Source: Eledone cirrhosa
Taxonomy: Eukaryota
DNA length: 64,000 nucleotides
Direction of reading: 5' to 3'
Assembly (NCBI GenBank): GCA_964016885.1
Contig: OZ024749.1
Coordinates: 2,790,001-2,854,000, forward strand
The translations under genes and the position numbers were made by a program. How positions within the stretch are numbered: the first letter of the stretch is position 1; each line of letters opens with the position of its first letter. Of the stretch, positions 4,825 to 57,492 are shown one piece after another. Below the pieces are notes generated by a model, which saw only the letters and a list, made by a program, of their open reading frames with translations, was not told the DNA's origin and ran no database searches.

Positions 4825-5420
4825 CAGAGTGTTCAGAATAAATTTGATAGAGTCTAATTTTTAATTATTTTCCCTTCTATCTGTGAAAAGTAAAACCTAA
4901 TTATGAAAGCTAATCATTAGAGTTTTAAAGGTATCAAAGTTAATTGGACAAGTGGAGACCACCTAAATATCGGAAAAGGGTAATCTGTGTCATCATGATA
5001 CCCAGGCAGCAGCATTCGACAATAATGGCAGCTACGCTATGTTTTTTGAATACTGTTAAAGCTATAAGACATGAAACAAGGAGCTGCAACAGGGAGTACG
5101 AGGCGGGGCTTGCAAGAATGAACACATCAGACATTCTGATTGCTTCTGTACTCTAGGATTTATCGAATAACTTCGGGAGAAATTGATGGAGCACCCACAC
5201 AAGGGAATGCGAACTTTAGCGGGGGAAATGCAGCTCTCACCATGAAGCAGGAATTGAATTGAGATCTCCGCTACCACTCATACAAGAGGCGTAAAGATCA
5301 ACTTCTTAAAGAAAAGGCTCGAGAAAACCGTTTGACAAAAGCAAAGAAACTCCTGAACAAAGTGACACGTCGTGTTGAACCAGGGACAATCTGGTTATTC
5401 TCGGATGAATATAACTTTGT
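4825..5420 (+). mobile_element. Tc1/mariner transposon 5' remnant
   Basis: Starts TA|CAG. 5263-5418 translates DLRYHSYKRRKDQLL...RLTKAKKLLN...WLFSDEYNF (first catalytic Asp motif). Confidence 0.75.
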
Positions 5421-19000: not shown

Positions 19001-19756
19001 AGGTGGATTGACAGTATCCGTAGAGGGTCGGACGCCATTCTTTGACGCATAGAGTTACGGCCCTTGCCATTCTGAGTTCAAATGCCGCCGAGGTTAACTT
19101 TGCCTTTCATCCTTACGGGGTCGATAAAATAAAGTACCAGTAATGCACTGGAGAATTGCTGGCCTTATGCCAAAAGTAGAAACAATTATTTTATTAACAT
19201 TATTCAGTGTCTGAAATGTTTCAGACGTTACCAGATCTGATTTAAACAATGCTGAGTTGAAATTTGAGAATCTCTGGACATCTTTCATCTTTCCATCCTC
19301 AACTAATTACGTGTTTGTTAAATGATACCGCATGATTTGGAGTGTACTCTATATCTATTATTTCCTTTTGTCGGTGGTTTGGCAGTATCGGTAGAGCGTC
19401 AGACACCATGCTTTGCAGCATAGAGTTATGGCCCTTTGTGTTCTGAGTTCAAATCCACTGAGATTAACTTTGACTTTCATCCTTACGAGGTCAATAAAAT
19501 AAAGTACCAGTGGTGCACTGGGGCAATCGCTGGCCTTGTGCCAATAGTAGAAACTCTATTTGAGGGCGGTGAATTGGCAGTATCGGTAGAGGGTCGGACG
19601 CCATGCCTTCCATCATAGATTTAGACCCCTTTATCGTCTGAGTTCAAATCCTGCCGAGGTTAACTTTGCCTTTCATCCTTACGGGGTCAATAAAATAAAG
19701 TACCAGTAATGTACTGGGTAATTGCTGGCCTTGTGCCAAAAGTAGAAACAATTATT
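19001..19756 (+). mobile_element. Cluster of three SINEs (19001-19190, 19372-19556, 19564-19756)
   Basis: Each has A/B boxes, the body and a ggcctt(g/a)tgccaa.agtagaaac tail. Confidence 0.9.
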
Positions 19757-21990: not shown

Positions 21991-22296
21991 CAAGTAAGTA
22001 TGTTTTGAAACAGTGAGCAGGTTTGAAATTAGAAAATAGAATAGCTTTCACCGTATATTTGACTAAATAAATTTTAGCCTGATAATGGGGTTTAGAACCC
22101 TCAGATAAATGGAAAAAGATGAGTATTGGCGTACATTTTTTGTGACACCCTGTATATATATATATAGTGGTGGAACACTGGAAGGTAATATCCGTAGTGG
22201 TAGAGCACTCAGTCCAAGGGACGAGTTAGGTAGAAGTGGTTACACAACCGTTAGTTCACCATACCGAGAACAATTGTTTCACCTTCGCAGATCTTC

Positions 22297-22336
22297 CCGA
22301 GCTGAAGATCCGCGAAGGTGAAACAATTGTTCTCGG
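22297..22336 (+). ncRNA. Minimal type I hammerhead within an inverted repeat with 66-bp arms (22231-22369)
   Basis: CCGAG-CTGAAGA-tccgcgaaggt-GAAAC-AATT-GTT-CTCGG. Confidence 0.75.
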
Positions 22337-22364
22337 TATGGTGAACTAACGGTTGTGTAACCAC

Positions 22365-22431
<67 letters not shown>

Positions 22432-42245: not shown

Positions 42246-45200
42246 TGAAACAAAATGAAAACGAAATTTCATTTCTCACACTTAGTATGGCACTTACTTA
42301 AATGTAAGTATGCATGTATACGTACATACATATATGTATACAGACGTACAGTAGCATGCACATATATATATATATATACATATATACATACATATGCATA
42401 CAGGTACACATACATATATGCACGTATCAGTTTAGCGGCGCTTATTATAACGTCGCTTTGTTCGTTTGTAAACATATATATATGTATATATATATATATA
42501 TATGTGCATGCTACTGTACGTCTGTATACATATATGTATGTACGTATACATGCATACTTACATTTAAGTAAGTGCCATACTAAGAGTGAGAAATTAAATT
42601 TCGTTTTCATTTTGTTTCAATTTATCGTTTTCGGTATGCCTGACCGATTTAACTCACTCAATATGCAAATTAGGCTGCTCAGCCTTAATTTTCATAAGGG
42701 AAGTATATACTTTCGAACGTTCAACTATCTGGCAGATGGGTAAACGGTGCTGATGATAGCTAACAAGCTTGAAACTAGTACATCGTTCCTGTGTCAGTGT
42801 TGAACAAAAAGGTGACGTGGTTGCCTTAACACCGTATGGCATAAATTCAGGCAGTTCAGTTTGTTTACAAACGAACAAAGCGACGTTATAATAAGCGCCG
42901 CTAAACTGATACGTGCATATATGTATGTGTACCTGTATGCATATGTATGTATATATGTATATATATATATATATGTGCATGCTACTGTACGTCTGTATAC
43001 ATATATGTATGTATGTATACATGCATACTTACATTTAAGTAAGTGCCATACTAAGAGTGAGAAATGAAATTTCGTTTTCATTTTGTTTCAATTTATCGTT
43101 TTCGGTATGCCTGACCGATTTAACTCACTCAATATGCAAATTAGGCTGCTCAGCCTTAATTTTCATAAGGGAAGTATATACTTTCGAACGTTCAACTATC
43201 TGGCAGATGGGTAAACGGTGCTGATGATAGCTAACAAGCTTGAAACTAGTACATCGTTCCTGTGTCAGTGTTGAACAAAAAGGTGACGTGGTTGCCTTAA
43301 CACCGTATGGCATAAATTCAGGCTGTTCAGTTTGTTTACAAACGAACTAAGCGACGTTATAATAAGCGCCGCTAAACTGATACGTGCATATATGTATGTG
43401 TACCTGTATGCATATGTATGTATATATGTATATATATATATATATATGTGCATGCTACTGTACGTCTGTATACATATATGTATGTACGTATACATGCATA
43501 CTTACATTTAAGTAAGTGCCATACTAAGAGTGAGAAATGAAATTTCGTTTTCATTTTGTTTCAATTTATCGTTTTCGGTATGCCTGACCGATTTAACTCA
43601 CTCAATATGCAAATTAGGCTGCTCAGCCTTAATTTTCATAAGGGAAGTATATACTTTCGAACGTTCAACTATCTGGCAGATGGGTAAACGGTGCTGATGA
43701 TAGTTAACAAGCTTGAAACTAGTACATCGTTCCTGTGTCAGTGTTGAACAAAAAGGTGACGTGGTTGCCTTAACACCGTATGGCATAAATTCAGGCTGTT
43801 CAGTTTGTTTACAAACGAACAAAGCGACGTTATAATAAGCGCCGCTAAACTGATACGTGCATATATGTATGTGTACCTGTATGCATATGTATGTATATAT
43901 GTATATATATATATATATGTGCATGCTACTGTACGTCTGTATACATATATGTATGTACGTATACATGCATACTTACATTTAAGTAAGTGCCATACTAAGA
44001 GTGAGAAATGAAATTTCGTTTTCATTTTGTTTCAATTTATCGTTTTCGGTATGCCTGACCGATTTAACTCACTCAATATGCAAATTAGACTGCTCAGCCT
44101 TAATTTTCATAAGGGAAGTATATACTTTCGAACGTTCAACTATCTGGCAGATGGGTAAACGGTGCTGATGATAGCTAACAAGCTTGAAACTAGTACATCG
44201 TTCCTGTGTCAGTGTTGAACAAAAAGGTGACGTGGTTGCCTTAACACCGTATGGCATAAATTCAGGCTGTTCAGTTTGTTTACAAACGAACAAAGCGACG
44301 TTATAATAAGCGCCGCTAAACTGATACGTGCATATATGTATGTGTACCTGTATGCATATGTATGTATATATGTATATATATATATATATGTGCATGCTAC
44401 TGTACGTCTGTATACATATATGTATGTACGTATACATGCATACTTACATTTAAGTAAGTGCCATACTAAGAGTGAGAAATGAAATTTCGTTTTCATTTTG
44501 TTTCAATTTATCGTTTTCGGTATGCCTGACCGATTTAACTCACTCAATATGCAAATTAGGCTGCTCAGCCTTAATTTTCATAAGGGAAGTATGTACTTTC
44601 GAACGTTCACCTATCTGGCAGATGGGTAAACGGTGCTGATGATAGCTAACAAGCTTGAAACTAGTACATCGTTCCTGTGTCAGTGTTGAACAAAAAGGTG
44701 ACGTGGTTGCCTTAACACCGTATGGCATAAATTCAGGCGGTTCAGTTTGTTTACAAACGAACAAAGCGACGTTATAATAAGCGCCGCTAAACTGATACGT
44801 GCATATATGTATGTGTACCTGTATGCATATGTATGTATATATGTATATATATATATATATGTGCATGCTACTGTACGTCTGTATACATATATGTATGTAC
44901 GTATACATGCATACTTACATTTAAGTAAGTGCCATACTAAGAGTGAGAAATGAAATTTCGTTTTCATTTTGTTTCAATTTATCGTTTTCGGTATGCCTGA
45001 CCGATTTAACTCACTCAATATGCAAATTAGGCTGCTCAGCCTTAATTTTCATAAGTGAAGTATATACTTTCGAACGTTCAACTATCTGGCAGATGGGTAA
45101 ACGGTGCTGATGATAGCTAACAAGCTTGAAACTAGTACATCGTTCCTGTGTCAGTGTTGAACAAAAAGGTGACGTGGTTGCCTTAACACCGTATGGCATA

Positions 45201-48200
45201 AATTCAGCTGTTCAGTTTGTTTACAAACGAACAAAGCGACGTTATAATAAGCGCCGCTAAACTGATACGTGCATATATGTATGTGTACCTGTATGCATAT
45301 GTATGTATATATGTATATATATATATATATGTGCATGCTACTGTACGTCTGTATACATATATGTATGTACGTATACATGCATACTTACATTTAAGTAAGT
45401 GCCATACTAAGAGTGAGAAATGAAATTTCGTTTTCATTTTGTTTCAATTTATCGTTTTCGGTATGCCTGACCGATTTAACTCACTCAATATGCAAATTAG
45501 GCTGCTCAGCCTTAATTTTCATAAGGGAAGTATATACTTTCGAACGTTCAACTATCTGGCAGATGGGTAAACGGTGCTGATGATAGCTAACAAGCTTGAA
45601 ACTAGTACATCGTTCCTGTGTCAGTGTTGAACAAAAAGGTGACGTGGTTGCCTTAACACCGTATGGCATAAATTCAGGCTGTTCAGTTTGTTTACAAACG
45701 AACAAAGCGACGTTATAATAAGCGCCGCTAAACTGATACGTGCATATATGTATGTGTACCTGTATGCATATGTATGTATATATGTATATATATATATATA
45801 TGTGCATGCTACTGTACGTCTGTATACATATATGTATGTATGTATACATGCATACTTACATTTAAGTAAGTGCCATACTAAGAGTGAGAAATGAAATTTC
45901 GTTTTCATTTTGTTTCAATTTATCGTTTTCGGTATGCCTGACCGATTTAACTCACTCAATATGCAAATTAGGCTGCTCAGCCTTAATTTTCATAAGGGAA
46001 GTATATACTTTCGAACGTTCAACTATCTGGCAGATGGGTAAACCGTGCTGATGATAGCTAACAAGCTTGAAACTAGTACATCGTTCCTGTGTCAGTGTTG
46101 AACAAAAAGGTGACGTGGTTGCCTTAACACCGTATGGCATAAATTCAGGCTGTTCAGTTTGTTTACAAACGAACAAAGCGACGTTATAATAAGCGCCGCT
46201 AAACTGATACGTGCATATATGTATGTGTACCTGTATGCATATGTATGTATATATGTATATATATATATATATGTGCATGCTACTGTACGTCTGTATACAT
46301 ATATGTATGTACGTATACATGCATACTTACATTTAAGTAAGTGCCATACTAAGAGTGAGAAATGAAATTTCGTTTTCATTTTGTTTCAATTTATCGTTTT
46401 CGGTATGCCTGACCGATTTAACTCACTCAATATGCAAATTAGGCTGCTCAGCCTTAATTTTCATAAGGGAAGTATATACTTTCGAACGTTCAACTATCTG
46501 GCAGATGGGTAAACGGTGCTGATGATAGCTAACAAGCTTGAAACTAGTACATCGTTCCTGTGTCAGTGTTGAACAAAAAGGTGACGTGGTTGCCTTAACA
46601 CCGTATGGCATAAATTCAGGCTGTTCAGTTTGTTTACAAACGAACAAAGCGACGTTATAATAAGCGCCGCTAAACTGATACGTGCATATATGTATGTGTA
46701 CCTGTATGCATATGTATGTATATATGTATATATATATATATATGTGCATGCTACTGTACGTCTGTATACATATATGTATGTACGTATACATGCATACTTA
46801 CATTTAAGTAAGTGCCATACTAAGAGTGAGAAATGAAATTTCGTTTTCATTTTGTTTCAATTTATCGTTTTCGGTATGCCTGACCGATTTAACTCACTCA
46901 ATATGCAAATTAGGCTGCTCAGCCTTAATTTTCATAAGGGAAGTATATACTTTCGAACGTTCAACTATCTGGCAGATGGGTAAACGGTGCTGATGATAGC
47001 TAACAAGCTTGAAACTAGTACATCGTTCCTGTGTCAGTGTTGAACAAAAAGGTGACGTGGTTGCCTTAACACCGTATGGCATAAATTCAGGCTGTTCAGT
47101 TTGTTTACAAACGAACAAAGCGACGTTATAATAAGCGCCGCTAAACTGATACGTGCATATATGTATGTGTACCTGTATGCATATGTATGTATATATGTAT
47201 ATATATATATATATGTGCATGCTACTGTACGTCTGTATACATATATGTATGTACGTATACATGCATACTTACATTTAAGTAAGTGCCATACTAAGAGTGA
47301 GAAATGAAATTTCGTTTTCATTTTGTTTCAATTTATCGTTTTCGGTATGCCTGACCGATTTAACTCACTCAATATGCAAATTAGGCTGCTCAGCCTTAAT
47401 TTTCATAAGGGAAGTATGTACTTTCGAACGTTCAACTATCTGGCAGATGGGTAAACGGTGCTGATGATAGCTAACAAGCTTGAAACTAGTACATCGTTCC
47501 TGTGTCAGTGTTGAACAAAAAGGTGACGTGGTTGCCTTAACACCGTATGGCATAAATTCAGGCGGTTCAGTTTGTTTACAAACGAACAAAGCGACGTTAT
47601 AATAAGCGCCGCTAAACTGATACGTGCATATATGTATGTGTACCTGTATGCATATGTATGTATATATGTATATATATATATATATGTGCATGCTACTGTA
47701 CGTCTGTATACATATATGTATGTACGTATACATGCATACTTACATTTAAGTAAGTGCCATACTAAGAGTGAGAAATGAAATTTCGTTTTCATTTTGTTTC
47801 AATTTATCGTTTTCGGTATGCCTGACCGATTTAACTCACTCAATATGCAAATTAGGCTGCTCAGCCTTAATTTTCATAAGTGAAGTATATACTTTCGAAC
47901 GTTCAACTATCTGGCAGATGGGTAAACGGTGCTGATGATAGCTAACAAGCTTGAAACTAGTACATCGTTCCTGTGTCAGTGTTGAACAAAAAGGTGACGT
48001 GGTTGCCTTAACACCGTATGGCATAAATTCAGGCTGTTCAGTTTGTTTACAAACGAACAAAGCGACGTTATAATAAGCGCCGCTAAACTGATACGTGCAT
48101 ATATGTATGTGTACCTGTATGCATATGTATGTATATATGTATATATATATATATATGTGCATGCTACTGTACGTCTGTATACATATATGTATGTACGTAT

Positions 48201-48212
48201 ACATGCATACTT
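42246..48212 (+). repeat. Tandem array of 12 ~471-bp units, each with a hammerhead ribozyme, led by an inverted partial unit (42246-42475)
   Basis: Near-identical units with spacings 471,473,471,471,471,470,471,471,471,471,471 (matching ORF ends at 42654...47836). Unit boundary follows ...CATTTTGTTTCA (42619, 43090). Both flanks are (TA/TATG)n. Confidence 0.97.
42743..42787 (+). ncRNA. Type I hammerhead ribozyme, first of 12 copies (CTGATGA at 42750, 43221, 43694, 44165, 44636, 45107, 45577, 46048, 46519, 46990, 47461, 47932)
   Basis: AACGGTG-CTGATGA-tAGCtaacaaGCTt-GAAAC-TA-GTA-CATCGTT. Stem I is 7 bp with one G-U; cores CUGAUGA and GAAA are intact; GUA cleavage triplet at 42778-42780; stem III is the palindrome ACUAGU. 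The pair closing stem II is a non-canonical U-U. Confidence 0.85.
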
Positions 48213-48297
48213 ATATATATATGTATTTATATATATGTATATATATGTATATATATGTATATATATATATATGTGTGTATATATATATATATATTTG

Positions 48298-48339
<42 letters not shown>

Positions 48340-48925
48340 TATATGTGTATATATATATATATATATGTGTATATATGTATATATATATGTATATATATGT
48401 ATATATATATGTATATATATGTATATATATATGTATATATATATGTATATATGTATATATGTATATATATATGTATATATGTATATATATATATGTATAT
48501 ATGTATGTATGTATATATGTATATATATGTATGTATGTATATATGTGTATATATGTATATATATGCATGTATGTATATATGTATATATATGTATATGTTC
48601 GTATATATATATATATATGTATATATATGTATGTATATATATATATGTATATATATGTATATATATATATATGTTTATATAAATGTATATATATATGTAT
48701 ATATATATGTTTATATATATGTTTATATATATGTATATATATATGTATATATATATGTATATATATATGTATATATACATGTATATATATATGCATATAT
48801 ACATGTATATATATATGTATATGTATATATATATGTATATATATATATGTATATATATATATGTATATATATACATATATATATGTATATATATATATGT
48901 ATATATATATATGTGTATATATATG

Positions 48926-48956
<31 letters not shown>

Positions 48957-49283
48957 CTATATATATATATGTATATATATATATGTATATATATATGTAT
49001 ATATATATATCTATATATATATATCTGTATATATATATGTATATGTATATATATATGTATATATATATGTATATATATATATGTATATATATATCTATAT
49101 ATATATATCTGTATATATATATGTATATGTATATGTATATGTATATATATATGTATATATATATGTATATATATGTATATATATATGTATATATATATGT
49201 ATATATATATGTATATATATATGTATATATATATGTATATATATATGTATATATATATGTATATATATATGCATATATATATG

Positions 49284-49320
<37 letters not shown>

Positions 49321-49328
49321 GTATATAT

Positions 49329-52300
49329 CTAAGGCGGGTAAAATTCCCGAGATCCATGGACGAGTTCTCTCCAGCGGTCTCTGTCCCTCATTATCGCTGC
49401 CATATCCTGCATCTCCAACAGACCAGTGTCTGTCATTAGGGCATCAACATATGTTAACCTTGGTCTTCCTCTTCTAGTGTGTTCATGTAGGGGCTCCCAA
49501 AGGAGCACTGAGTGCAATGTCAACTCTGGATGTCGGTGAGCATGTCCAGCCAACCTCAGTCTCCTCTGTGTCACTTTTGAGCTGACTTTTGGGATGCTCC
49601 CATACAGCTCTGAGTTTTTCATCCTCAGTGTATACTGATTAATGTTCAGAGCCATCCTCAGCATTCTCGTGTAGCACCCATCCACCATCTGAGTGAGTCT
49701 CTTGGTCAGTGTCCAAATCTCAGACCCATACAGCAGCACAGACTCCACTACAGCAATGAAGAGGCAGATGTTCAGGTCTCTACGAAGGTCCGACTTCCAC
49801 ACCGATCTCAAGCTGTGACACGCCGCCCAGGCCTTGCTCTTCCTCTCAACCACATCATCTTCCGTATTCCCAATCTTTGCTCCCAAATATAGGAAGTCCT
49901 CAACCAATTCCAGCGGCTTCCCGCCTACATTAGTGATCCCCTCTGGCTTCTCAACATTCTCTACCAGATATTTTGTTTTAGTCTCATTCATTCTCAGCCC
50001 CACACTCATTGACACAGTCTCAACCTCCCGCATCAAATCCTCTGCCTCCTTCACTGTATTTGTCACCAAAACTATGTCGTCGGCAAATTCAGCATCCGAT
50101 ACCTTTTTCGCCCCAACTCTCCTGCTCTGAGCCGGTGCTACAGTAAAGCCAGTGTCCTGGTGTTTCTCAAGTGCAAGGCGCATACAATAGTCCACTACGA
50201 TGATAAAAAGTTAGGGAGCCAATGTATCTCCCTGGAGCACTCCAGCCAGTATCTCAAAGAACTCTGTCATCCCATCAGGTGTAATGACTTGGGTGTTGGT
50301 GTAGAGCAGTGATATCTGGTCCACTATCCTCTTGGGGATTCCATAAGCCTGTAAGATCTTCATCAGGCAGTAACGGTCCACAGAATCAAAGGCCTTCCTA
50401 AAGTCAATGAAAACCATGACTGCAGGAAGGCACTTTGCTCTAGCTCCCTCTAATATCCTCCTCAGCATCAGGATGTGACTGGTGGTTGATCTAGCCTCTC
50501 TGAAGCCGTTCTGGTTGTCCCTGAGCTTCTTCTCCATCTCAGGCTGGATCCTGTTAAGAATCATCCTGTTGAGGGTCTTTGCCACAAGTGACGTCAGTGA
50601 GATCCCCCGGTAGTTGTTGGTGTTAGAGAGATCTCCCTTCTTTGGCCCTGGGACGATGTTACTGATCCGCCACTGATTCGGGGCAACTCCTTTCTCCGGT
50701 GCCCCGTTACAGAACCCCAGGATGATATCATCAAAATCACACCTCTTCATCACCTCTGATGCCACTCCATCTTCTCCATGAGCCTTGCCCTCCTTGATCT
50801 TCTTCTTGGCTCTCTGAAGCTCCTCTCTGGTGAAGGGCTCTGTCTCAACATCCAGTACCTCAAACAGCCGCCTGATCTCCCCAGTGCTCTGGGCTGTGGA
50901 GGGTGGCTCTCCTAGTAGGGTCCTAAAATGGTCTAGCCATTTCCTCTTCCTATCCTCGGGCCCCGTTCCCTGGATTTGACTCGAACACCTTTTCTTCCTC
51001 CCTGTGATCTCGTTGATGATCATCCAGCTCTCCTTACATCCAGATCTGTCAACCGCTCTCTCCACACTTCTGATCTTCTCTATCAGTGCCTCCTCTCTGA
51101 CCTCAGTGTAAGCGGTACAGAGCTCTTCCCTCATCACCTCCACAGTCTCCATCCTCTCCTCCGTAGGATCAGCATAGAATTGGTCCCTGGCAGCTTTCAG
51201 GTGTTCTCTGGCTGCACACACTTTTGGGTTTGCAGAGCTGACGTGCTTCCCTTTGTTCTTTTTCCTCGGCACCAGGGTTTCACTTGCTTCCGCCACTGCA
51301 TTGGTGAAGTGCCCGTACCTCCTTGTCACACTCTCCTCAGTCCATCCAATCTCTCTCTCCTCTGACTCTCCACACAGAGCACTAAACCTGTTTCTCACTT
51401 CCACTGTGAACCTCTCCTGTAGCTTATCATCTTCCTTGAAAGCTCCCCAGTCATAGATTGTTCTCCGGGGCTGAGCCTTGCTCTTTCTTAAGCTCACGCG
51501 GACCTCACTCATAACAAGCCGGTGGTCACTACCCAGTGTACTGAAATAGCTGTATGGTTCCGTGTTCAGAATACTATTCCGCCACTTTTTCCTCACCAGA
51601 ATGAAATCAATCTGGGACTTGGACAGGTGCATATCTGAGATGTAGGTCCACATCTTCCCCAGATTCTTCCTAAACCCTAGGTTGGTCGCCATCAAGTTCG
51701 CCTCCAGCAGGGTGTCTCTCAGTAGTCTTCCATTTCGGTTGGTGTTGTTATGGAAGTACCAGCAAGGATCTTCACTGCCCTCCTTACTCAGATGTGCATT
51801 GAAGTCCCCCAAAACAAGCAGGATATTGTGTGCCTGAGTGGTGTTGACAGCTCTACACACCTCCTCATGGAACTCCTCGGCATTCACATCACCGTCCCTC
51901 TCGGTTGGACTATAGGCTGAGATGACTGTCAGTCTTGGGTTTCCATTGAAGGTCACCCTCAACACTCGCGGGGAGATAGGCATTATTTCCCTCACCAACA
52001 GATTGGTTTTTGCACTGAACACAAAACCCACTCCTCCCACTGCAGCATTTGTTGTGTTCTTCACTGCCGATGTAGTGATGAGCTGGCTCTTCCTCCCGAT
52101 CATCACACTCCTCACGGGCTCATCGTGTAGAATCCTGTGTTCTTGGATCGCAAGTATCTGTATACCACTCTCCTCGAACAGATGTCCCAACTCCTCTCTC
52201 TTCTCCAGCGTTCGAATAGTCCTCACATTCAAAGTGCCCATTTTGATGGCTCTTCTGCAAGACAAAACTGCATTCTTTATATTTGTCTCAGAGACAGCTG

Positions 52301-52630
52301 ATCCATCATCCACTGGCCCTCTCTGTGGCTCTAAGCCAGCAGAGTCATAACGACCAGGCTGCTCCTTGACAGCGTAATTAGGGGCTCTAACCCTAGTGCT
52401 GTTAGATCGACTCTCCATATTTCTTTTCAATGGCTGACAATACCTTACCGGCGCCACTCGAATAAGGTAGTTATTTAACCCATAAATGGAGCCCTAACAG
52501 GTACTACCACCCCGGGCCAGGGCAGACCTGGGAGTCATGACAACTAAGGGGTAACTCCACATTCCCCACATCTCCTGAACTCCCGAACTGGAGCCTTGCC
52601 ACTGGATGTAGTTTAATGTCATACCCAGGA
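49329..52630 (-). mobile_element. RTE-superfamily LINE (APE endonuclease + RT), near full length, with one in-frame stop
   Basis: ORF 50211-52457 has TLNVRT, IQEH, LGDFNAH, SDH, YRGISL, QNGFR, FIDFRKAFDS and GVLQGDTLAP*. It continues in the same frame as LFIIVVDY...FADD...YLG...LYGSE...GRP to TAG at 49329. About 170 bp of 5' UTR is present. Confidence 0.95.
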
Positions 52631-55437: not shown

Positions 55438-57492
55438 AATAACTTTGAATAACTTTGAAATGTTTTGGCCAGTATTGGCCCAGGCCATGTCTAACTTAAT
55501 AGCACCACCTGGCGAAGTCTTTCAATTCAGGATTTGGGCACCATGGCCCATTCGAGAAGAGAATTACTGATTGCGGAGACATATCCGGGTGTGTGTGGTT
55601 TGTCCGGGATTACTTGGAGGAATTTGTCCAAAGACTTCTTGAATTTTGTGTGGTCAGTTTCTGTTTTGACGTGTCCTGGTGTGATGTTGAAGAGAGCAGG
55701 GCCGATTGAGGTGAAATAATTGTGCCGTATTGTTGTTATGAGTTGCGATTTAGATTTTTGAATGGGACGGATAGCACGGGGCCCAAGCCTTGGGTGTATC
55801 TTGAAGGCGATGCCAACATCATTTGGGCAGTGATGATGGAACATTTTCCACATCATGCAGATAATATAACGCTCACGGCGACGTTGGAGTGAGTAAAGTT
55901 TCAGGTTTTCTAATCGACCCCAGTAGTCAAGGTCTGACATGCCATCTATCTTTTTCGTGATTGCCCTTTGAGGAGCTTCAAGTTTCATGATACTTTGTTT
56001 CGTGTGGGGAGACCACAGTGGACAACAGTATTCAAGGTGTGGTCGGGCGAAAGTAGAGAAGAGAAGGATAATGGTGCGGGAATCTCTCGACTGGAAGGTT
56101 CTGAGGATCCAGGAACACATTCTGCGGGCCATGTCAACTTTGCTGCTTATATGCGTGGTCCAGCTTATATTGCTGTCCACGGTTACTCCCAAGTCTCTGA
56201 TGTTGTTAGATGCCACGAGAGTTTCCCCGAAGGTAAGGTAGTACGGGAGTTTCAGAGCATCCTCTTTTCCAAAGTGGATCAGTTCGAATTTGTCTTCGTT
56301 CAGTAACATGTTGTTCTTTTCTGCCCATTGGGTAACAGCCAGTAGGTCTGACTGAAGGCTTATCCGGTCATCCACGCCATTGATGACCTTTTGGAGCTTG
56401 GAATCATCAGCGAAAATTTTAATGTTGCTGTGTTTGATGATGTCAGTGATGTCATTAATATAGATGATGAAGAGAAGTGGGCCCAACACAGTGGCTTGTG
56501 GGACCCCACTACTGACTTTGGCTTGGCTTGATTTGACTCCCTCAACTACAGCATGTTGGGTTCTGTTTGACAGGAAGCTCTTGATCCACTGCAGCAGCTT
56601 TCCAGTGACACCAATATTGGACAGCTTTCTCAGTAGAATGTATGATCAACCCTGTCAAAGGCCTTGCTGAAATCAAGGTAGATAACATCAGTGTTGGAAC
56701 CCTCTCCCAAGGCTCTCAAAATGTCATCAAAGTGATGCAGTAGCTGCGTCAGGCAATCCCTTCCATTACGGAATCCATGCTGGTTGGAGTTCAGCATATT
56801 GTTACTCTCAAGGAAGTGGGTCATTCGCGATCTCACCACTCGCTCAAATACCTTAATGATATGAGAGGTGAGTGAGATTGGACGGTAATTCACGGCAAGG
56901 GATTTGTTTCCCTTTTTGAAAACTGGGACAACAGACTGGGATAGAAGGTTTTCTGGCACATATCCAGCATCCAGTGAGTTCCGCCACAGATTGGCAAGAG
57001 GAGATGCAAGTTGGTGTTGACACGCCTTCAAGACACAAGCAGGGAACCTATCGGGACCTACTGCTGAATTATGCTTGATTTCCTTTATTGCCGCCAAGAC
57101 ATCAGGGGCGCCAAACGTTATGTCCGATAAGGTGTAATGGGGAGTAACATCGCCGATACAGCCCAGATCGGCCATATCAGGATTGCTGAAAACAGAGCAG
57201 TATTGTTTCTGCAGTATCTCACCCATGGTTTTAGCATTGTCTTGAAGAGTGCCATTTTCATCAATTAGAGGGCCAACAGTAGAGCCAGTGATTTTGTGTT
57301 TTTTTGCAAATGAAAAGAACACTTTGGGATTGAGCTTGATCTTCTCAATGGCCCAGGCCTCTTCAGCTCTTCTCTGATTGTTGATGAGGGACATTATGTT
57401 GTTTTGGAGGTTATGTTTTTTAATCTCTAGTGATGAAATGGCAGTCAAGTTGATGTGTTGCTGCTGACAGTATTTCAGCTTGTTGATTTTTT
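55438..57492 (-). mobile_element. CR1-type LINE, 5'-truncated, RT frameshifted near 56640
   Basis: GPD, NYRPISLTS, QHGFR and YLDFSKAFDRVDH in ORF 56630-57448; LGPLLFIIYIND, IFADDSKL, RDLGV, RPHLEY and LYSLQRRRER in ORF 55527-56489. Short 3' UTR ends in (TTCAAAGTTA)2. Confidence 0.9.

Follow-up and report, generated by a model that had tools for sequence, protein, structure and literature searches.

A twelve-unit hammerhead-ribozyme array in Eledone cirrhosa, very probably a young copy of a large retrozyme family mobilised by Penelope-like elements

A 64,000-nucleotide stretch of the Eledone cirrhosa genome, referred to here as the window (assembly GCA_964016885.1, contig OZ024749.1, positions 2,790,001 to 2,854,000 of the forward strand), contains a tandem array of ~471-bp non-coding units, each with a type I hammerhead ribozyme motif. 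The array lies within a degenerate (TA)n microsatellite and is built from two arms of the same unit joined head to head. An earlier note had described 12 repeats of 471 bp at 42246..48212; the 12 hammerheads and their 470-473-bp spacing stand, and the first 229 bp (42246-42474) are instead an inverted partial unit. The features of the array and its flanks are listed below, with unit positions counted from the predicted cut site.

42246..42474, minus strand: inverted arm, partial unit from 310 to 82 (blastn to the unit, 99.6% over 229 bp)
42475..48213, plus strand: direct arm, 12.2 head-to-tail units, composed of a 306-bp lead, 11 full units, and a 251-bp trail (Tandem Repeats Finder, TRF, and unit alignment)
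42736..42794, plus strand: type I hammerhead 1 (motif reading, predicted cut after A42780)
43207, 43680, 44151, 44622, 45093, 45563, 46034, 46505, 46976, 47447, and 47918, plus strand: further hammerheads, 59 bp each
42781..43251, plus strand: first cut-to-cut monomer, 471 nt, non-coding, predicted linear or circular RNA
42910..43030, plus strand: internal (TA/TG)n tract of the unit
43032..43096, plus strand: "tail" of unit 1, the stretch from the short end to the long end (end mapping, pairing probabilities)
40393..42245, no strand: left flank, degenerate (TA)n microsatellite, insertion target
48214..49328, no strand: right flank, degenerate (TA)n microsatellite

TRF reports 42475-48213 as a tandem array with a period of 471, 12.2 copies, and 99% matches. 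The 12 cores, which read CTGATGA...GAAAC-TA-GTA^CATCGTT, lie at 42750, 43221, 43694, 44165, 44636, 45107, 45577, 46048, 46519, 46990, 47461, and 47932, with predicted cuts after 42780, 43251, and so on to 47962. Core spacing is 470-473 bp, and the units are 99.2-100% identical; each of the 11 cut-to-cut units (470-473 bp) carries 0-4 differences from the majority unit, in agreement with the few substitutions noted earlier. The unit has a GC content of ~0.36 and only short frames, running through the microsatellite, with no open reading frame (ORF) encoding a reverse transcriptase (RT) and GIY-YIG protein. The outer (3′) end of the inverted arm, at 42246, is of a type termed long ("L", tail-bearing), and that of the direct arm, at ~48213, is of a type termed short ("S"). 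A small hairpin lies at the short end (unit 251-258); the long end (unit 310-316) is single-stranded, 3′ of an 8-bp hairpin. The internal (TA/TG)n tract folds as a long hairpin, determines the unit length particular to each array (459-475 bp among young ones), and serves as a landing place for later insertions. The sole N gap in the window, 34401-34600, lies outside the array.

The young subfamily to which the array belongs is recognised by G at unit position 391. Four variants reappear at a distance of exactly six units (in units 1/7, 4/10, and 5/11), which suggests that the array was doubled later, the 12 units probably having arisen from six by block duplication, or else that the template already had a six-unit period. 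The first ~720-740 bp of the right flank form a direct repeat of the last ~720-740 bp of the left flank; nicks set far apart could have produced this as a long target-site duplication. As a family trait, such a duplication was rejected: it is clear in one of 30 loci (the window) and weak in one other (L097; compared loci are numbered in this way), and a cross-locus control gave similar counts in 0.6-1.6% of 870 pairs.

Hammerhead 1 comprises a helix I of 7 bp with one G-U pair, a TA bulge, and three further pairs; a CUGAUGA core; a helix II of 4 bp plus a U-U, with an AACA loop; GAAA; and a palindromic helix III, ACUAGU. The CUGANGA, GAAA, and NUH elements with three helices, open at helix I, are found in 12 of 12 copies, and in core 46048 a G>C change breaks one helix I pair. 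A complete type I hammerhead in every unit, a predicted cut after A42780, and the U-U closing stem II were all read correctly in the earlier note. The G10.1-C11.1 pair that closes helix II in the type I consensus is U-U in the window family and G-C in a sister family described below. A natural variant with U-U at the base of helix II, axolotl HHR_Amex2, cleaves 22% in 1 h as a monomer and far more as a dimer (PMC7229834), so that the U-U lowers the expected rate and leaves type I membership intact. A palindromic helix III is said to favour cleavage as a dimer (PMC4209133).

The monomer has a predicted fold of -156.9 kcal/mol (z = -8.4), with none of 100 shuffles as good, part of this strength coming from the self-complementary (TA/TG)n tract; the circular fold of the majority unit is at -156.2 kcal/mol. 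In the predicted circle, helix II is stable (pairing probabilities of 0.91-1.0) and helix I is partial (0.18-0.80). Among 13 distinct sequences of the window and sister families, the core is invariant save for position 7 and the cut-site base, both partners change in seven of the 17 pairs (18 cells), and 91% of cells are paired; controls with slid partners are 32-48% paired and have at most four both-sided cells. By eye, the first 100 of 11,223 listed cores include 11 with U7>C, 12 with loop II changes, and nine changed in the conserved core or helix III; U7 and loop II are the freely variable places of a hammerhead. On these patterns the ribozyme looks selected, and it is rated as probably active.

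The mode of integration is recorded in the ends of the family's copies. A total of 49 loci were examined, comprising the window, eight loci from among the best BLAST matches, and 40 loci picked from the first 100 listed matches to the 38-nt core. Outer 3′ ends cluster at two places in the unit, the short end with its last matching base at 251-258 (38 ends) and the long end at ~310-316 (48 ends), a distance of ~59 nt. Among the 30 two-armed insertions in which both ends could be classed, reading the minus arm and then the plus arm, 18 are S/L and 12 are L/S, with no S/S and no L/L; if each end were chosen independently at equal odds, 30 mixed pairs of 30 would have a probability near 1e-9. A TA run is entered by 38 of 38 short ends and 47 of 48 long ends. 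The inner head-to-head junctions are scattered over the unit, and the two arm lengths are unrelated; 12 of the 30 junctions show 1-12 nt of overlap that could be microhomology, and the others carry inserted or unassigned bases, some from single-nucleotide variants (SNVs) of subfamilies. At L047, ~26 bp of flank sequence is present in inverted orientation just outside both insertion ends (L047:1380-1415 and 5021-5060).

The same rule holds in other elements of this genome. One short and one long end are seen in two of two copies of the sister family (L129 and L138), which uses the same two end sites as the window family, and, as a positive control, in five of five two-armed copies fetched of a 1,217-aa Penelope-like element (PLE). 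Other hammerhead families also show short and long ends in (TA)n, including one inside the window at 22280/22320. An inverted copy, a tail at one end, and a microsatellite bias are marks of PLE insertion (PMC8557442; PMC3846280), and the window family shows an inverted 5′-truncated copy with a tail at one end only and an AT-rich, microsatellite target. In vitro, the anole PLE protein, modelled as a dimer, nicks and extends both DNA strands, and two internal RT start sites bound the tail (PMC11167929). By comparison, the two tail borders found here would be RT start sites. The inverted arm, the two fixed ends, and the TA target thus support the earlier suggestion of spread by a Penelope-like RT, and the case for PLE mobilisation rests on insertion anatomy, not analogy alone.

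The two arms were compared further through the distances between their blocks, computed outside the microsatellite. Blocks of the same arm are a median of 0.29% apart (262 pairs), blocks on opposite arms of one locus a median of 0.0% (129 block pairs), and blocks of different loci 3.5% (13,070 pairs). Both arms usually share one locus-specific haplotype. Subfamily haplotypes span both arms in L047, L056, L104, and L105, with a seven-SNV haplotype across both arms of L047. Young arrays keep one unit length throughout, differing between arrays (459, 463, and 471), and more than one unit is present on both arms in five of 30 insertions, as in one of 3,767 + 2,533 bp whose units are all 463 bp long. 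L031 and L089 also show conversion between units. The earlier proposal that the array was integrated as one concatemer is only partly right, the period-6 variants pointing to a later six-unit duplication or to a template with that period. The arm comparisons fit copying from one template, either a monomer circle or a linear RNA transcribed from a highly homogeneous donor. Cleaved linear monomers are not the evident template, as inner arm ends show no clear excess near the cut: three of 52 lie no more than 5 nt from it, against 1.2 expected (P = 0.12).

The window array is a minor part of the family. The host reads as a cephalopod from its proteins too: the genome encodes mollusc-type hemocyanin (39 of 43 candidates match PF14830), and one domain scores 647-655 bits against the squid and octopus structures PDB 6r83, 4yd9, and 1js8, with at most 502 among the other scores listed. 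A search of the 3.0-Gb genome gave 10,264 exact matches to the 38-nt core (5,230 + 5,034 by strand) and none to a reversed-pattern control; a flank-anchored pattern gave 11,223 cores. The first 100 listed 38-nt matches form 52 clusters, 39 of which hold one or two exact cores, and, if the start of contig 1 is typical, the family occupies roughly 5,300 loci. The array is therefore not a lone satellite; the earlier note had missed the family size (~10,000 exact cores), the inverted arm, and the two-site end rule. The note's assignment to the retrozyme class holds, with non-coding tandem units of ~0.36 GC, one hammerhead per unit, and copies dispersed genome-wide from monomers to multimers. A further 7,829 cores, in arrays of 466-468-bp units, come from sister families whose helix II differs; one such array reaches 31 units in an arm. 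The sister family at L129 and L135-L163 (e.g. G000:C1:5738324-5752446) is 66% identical to the window family over the best-aligned 248 bp.

Several elements have landed in or near the TA tract of the unit (L040:3031-6165, L057, L041, L096, and L102), including a long interspersed element (LINE) with a 1,045-aa apurinic/apyrimidinic endonuclease (APE)-RT frame inside L040 and a PLE fragment of an 830-aa type. The 1,045-aa frame was considered as an ORF of the retrozyme family and rejected, as it belongs to the inserted APE-type LINE. Matches of Rfam microRNA models to the TA tract were set aside as low-complexity artefacts. Four sequencing runs not recorded as RNA were compared with window 42200-43760. 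Near-identical pieces of the unit occur at a low depth of 4-19x in three of them, X4, X5, and X6, labelled as three other organisms, and include a 470-base contig; these pieces may come from relatives, diet, or contamination. The run X1 has very deep cover and is possibly the assembled sample, and hence was not counted as independent support.

Candidate partners are present in the same genome. From 10,595 GIY-YIG candidates, 150 were scored and 26 fetched; with protein searches from two PLE fragments and a degenerate hammerhead pattern added, the PLE families found comprise frames with a Neptune-type RT and GIY-YIG, a Poseidon-like family, an 830-aa family, and a 1,217-aa family. Scoring gave 83 copies of the 830-aa family, at 98-99% or more, and 131 of the 1,217-aa family (with an RT and a GIY-YIG-like domain), most of them 99% identical, so that young, intact PLEs are provided by these two families and by the Neptune-type frames. 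Neither the 830-aa nor the 1,217-aa protein has a Pfam match; PLE status was assigned from blastp matches to PLE frames that Pfam confirms, from the presence of YxDD and of GIY-YIG-like motifs, and from copy structure, and for the 830-aa protein also from the Atlas. Both young families have hammerhead-like motifs in their repeats and ends in (TA)n. In the 1,217-aa element, the two RT start sites, ~85 nt apart, fall within the beginning of the ORF, and this autonomous element also yields tandem two-armed S/L insertions with 4.1-kb units. It is extremely young (L176-L186), carries an asparagine-rich insert, and has 478 bp of spacer from one tandem ORF to the next. The 830-aa element has a YRDD RT motif, a GIY-YIG-like C terminus, and 6.6-kb tandem units elsewhere in the genome; in the hammerhead-like motif of its repeat, helix II carries an insert of ~115 nt and helix III is palindromic. 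A 5′-truncated copy of this very young element lies 2.8 kb to the left of the array, at window 37813-39375 (minus strand), continuing into 34800-37800. The end of the 830-aa family was considered as a homologue of the long end and rejected, the likeness of ~20 AT-rich bases being too weak.

The array is thus very probably a young copy of a very large, non-autonomous, non-coding retrozyme family mobilised by PLE machinery, and the borrowed machinery is most likely a Penelope-like RT/GIY-YIG protein, an enzyme inferred from the insertions. A cycle can be proposed on this basis. Arrays would be transcribed as multimers, and the type I hammerhead would cut each unit a single time, most efficiently in dimeric form by way of its palindromic helix III. 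A host ligase may then close the 471-nt monomer, as suggested by the retrozymes of coral, mussel, and axolotl. The PLE protein would nick both strands of a (TA)n tract, the target being visible in the sequence. From each of the two DNA ends, reverse transcription would be primed at its own fixed site inside one and the same RNA, the two sites lying 59 nt apart; the pattern of ends is observed, and the priming is proposed from the anole work. Each RT would run a variable distance past the ribozyme junction, often for several units, and the complementary DNAs (cDNAs) would be joined head to head at variable points, in keeping with the observed pattern. Unequal exchange, conversion, and slippage may later alter unit number, and here six units were probably doubled to twelve. 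Priming at two sites of one RNA is considered likely, and the balance tips slightly towards a circle as the template. The fullest version is put forward tentatively: a PLE RT dimer would prime twice, 59 nt apart, on one ribozyme-made RNA circle, with both subunits travelling round the circle and displacing each other's cDNA, each insertion being a palindrome of two rolling-circle multimers that has exactly one end of each length class. If this version is true, these cephalopod arrays document in the genome that animal retrozymes move in circular form by PLE twin priming, and one short plus one long end is a strict, general law of PLE integration.

The template can be accounted for differently. 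The same element and the same PLE machinery could have used an uncleaved linear multimer from a young source array, the ribozyme being dispensable for insertion. In the anole system, hammerhead mutants left insertion unaffected and unprocessed RNA was the main substrate in vitro (PMC11167929); the autonomous 1,217-aa PLE makes tandem two-armed S/L insertions of 4.1-kb units, and a homogeneous donor array would likewise give homogeneous arms. However, the TA-set unit length is constant within young arrays and across their arms and differs between arrays (459, 463, or 471), in keeping with a single monomer; in L089, an old locus, variant-sharing units are out of the order predicted for a mixed multimer template, and the ribozyme is conserved with compensating changes. 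A linear multimer is accordingly rated as a serious but doubtful possibility. A second account would restrict retrotransposition to one or two units, with long arrays grown in place by unequal crossover, as in a 2026 preprint on Xenopus. The period-6 recurrence of four variants in the window, one variant at period 3 in L031, and shared blocks in L089 agree with such growth, as do the 39 of the first 52 clusters with one or two exact cores; yet both arms already hold several units in very young arrays, whose internal divergence is 0.1-0.3% (L031/32, L036, L038, and L039), so growth would have to act fast on both arms, and it cannot create an inverted arm or fixed ends. It is unlikely as the main source of these arrays.

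The inverted arm itself could have come from self-priming after fold-back at palindromes, as modelled by Arkhipova et al. (2013), instead of two primings on the RNA, given that palindromic junctions are reported for rotifer PLEs (PMC3846280) and that the arms of L043 join at a 12-nt palindrome, with unit position 392 on both arms. Fold-back is very improbable here, as the arms usually stop at different unit positions, their lengths are very unequal (221 vs 5,727 bp in the window), the S arm is the longer in 13 of 30 insertions, and by itself the model leaves the constant tail difference of the outer ends unexplained. Collapse or expansion of a short array in assembly, finally, could account for the period-6 sharing and for private variants being mostly in the first block, both of which could reflect mis-joined haplotypes or reads. 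The array nevertheless has no N gap, its units carry distinguishing variants, similar-sized arrays occur on other contigs, and one sister array has 31 units in one arm, so that an artefact of length is improbable.

Several observations weigh against the proposed movement of an active ribozyme-bearing element by a PLE. No DNA homology was detected between the unit and the PLE families inspected, while Xenopus retrozymes do match the pseudo-long terminal repeats (pLTRs) of PLEs (bioRxiv 10.64898/2026.07.22.740005), and the 59-nt tail is longer than the 30-40 bp given for PLEs (PMC8557442), the value for the local 1,217-aa PLE being ~85 nt. The pair count omits 19 of the 49 loci, which have a single arm, a later insertion, an end in the internal TA tract, or an end beyond the fetched stretch; one of these, once extended, became a 31st classed locus, of the S/L type. 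The mean opposite-arm distance is 1.7%, raised by old loci and by unrelated neighbouring copies. For the ribozyme, the 66-nt hammerhead alone folds no better than shuffles (z = -0.36), Rfam gives no match at its gathering score (best HH9, 18.5 bits, E 0.086, cut-off 52), and two or three lineages, with a structure named by the analyst, underlie the covariation. In addition, one of nine Xenopus retrozyme dimers cleaved in vitro (bioRxiv 10.64898/2026.07.22.740005), so that an intact-looking motif need not cut.

Other elements surround the array. A small two-armed element of another hammerhead family lies at window 22165-22380 (core 22302, plus strand), with a short and a longer end in (TA)n. 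Hammerhead-like cores at 32370, 29118, 22569, 15270, and 9816, all on the minus strand, represent two or more further families; the cores at 32370, 29118, and 9816 reach (TA)n ~50-60 nt downstream, and the genome holds many further hammerhead families of such kind. LINE-type RT elements are located at 49332-52493 and 55530-57490 (minus strand), the former with an endonuclease domain and a frame break at ~50210. Copies of a repeat resembling a short interspersed element are found at 19372-19749 and in many flanks; we take this repeat to be typical of octopus genomes.

These results bear on two questions, namely which retroelement moves animal retrozymes and whether an RNA circle is the template. 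A link of retrozymes to PLEs has already been argued (PMC7229834; PMC7761336; bioRxiv 10.64898/2026.07.22.740005), with PLEs called a "strong candidate" in PMC7229834. The integration footprint is a third kind of evidence on the mover, present in thousands of copies that include very young members. It names two RNA sites that a partner RT should use, so that an in vitro match to the young PLE proteins would be a direct test, and the one-short-one-long rule, also seen in an autonomous PLE, constrains models of PLE integration. A literature search, judged by the titles and abstract openings listed, found no account of a cephalopod retrozyme or of an end rule in retrozymes; repeat databases and supplements were outside that search, and the family may be catalogued under another name.

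Similar to the metazoan non-LTR retrozymes (LTR, long terminal repeat) of PMC7229834, the window family has non-coding tandem units with a GC content below 50%, one type I hammerhead each, thousands of copies ranging from monomers to long multimers, and PLEs in the same genome; as in axolotl HHR_Amex2, U-U is present at the base of helix II. The unit is slightly longer here, 459-540 bp with an internal (TA)n, than in coral (220-240 nt), mussel (350-390 nt), or axolotl (330/350 nt). The inverted arms, two-site ends, and microsatellite target seen here are not described in the main text of PMC7229834 as searched, where neither "inverted" nor "microsatellite" occurs, whereas RNA and circles have been demonstrated for the retrozymes of that study and the window family is known from its DNA. 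The Xenopus retrozymes presented as PLE derivatives (Li, Clavereau & Pollet 2026, bioRxiv 10.64898/2026.07.22.740005) are of the same class with the same proposed partner. The evidence there is co-occurrence and pLTR homology, and here it is insertion anatomy, with no pLTR homologue among the families inspected. The preprint favours later local growth by unequal crossover, makes no mention of tail or target sites, and samples 35 species, with no mollusc in its class list.

The insertions also resemble those of endonuclease-containing (EN+) PLEs (Penelope/Poseidon, Neptune, Naiad, Chlamys, and Hydra; PMC8557442, PMC3846280, PMC11167929), which share the tandem and inverted 5′-truncated layout, the tail at one end, two internal RT start sites, the AT-rich or microsatellite target, and a hammerhead in the repeat. 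The differences are that the window family has no ORF, its whole unit behaving as a free pLTR, that its hammerhead is extended and canonical, not minimal, and that its tail is 59 nt. The element class is a known one, and by sequence criteria the window family is a metazoan non-LTR retrozyme with an unusually clear integration footprint.

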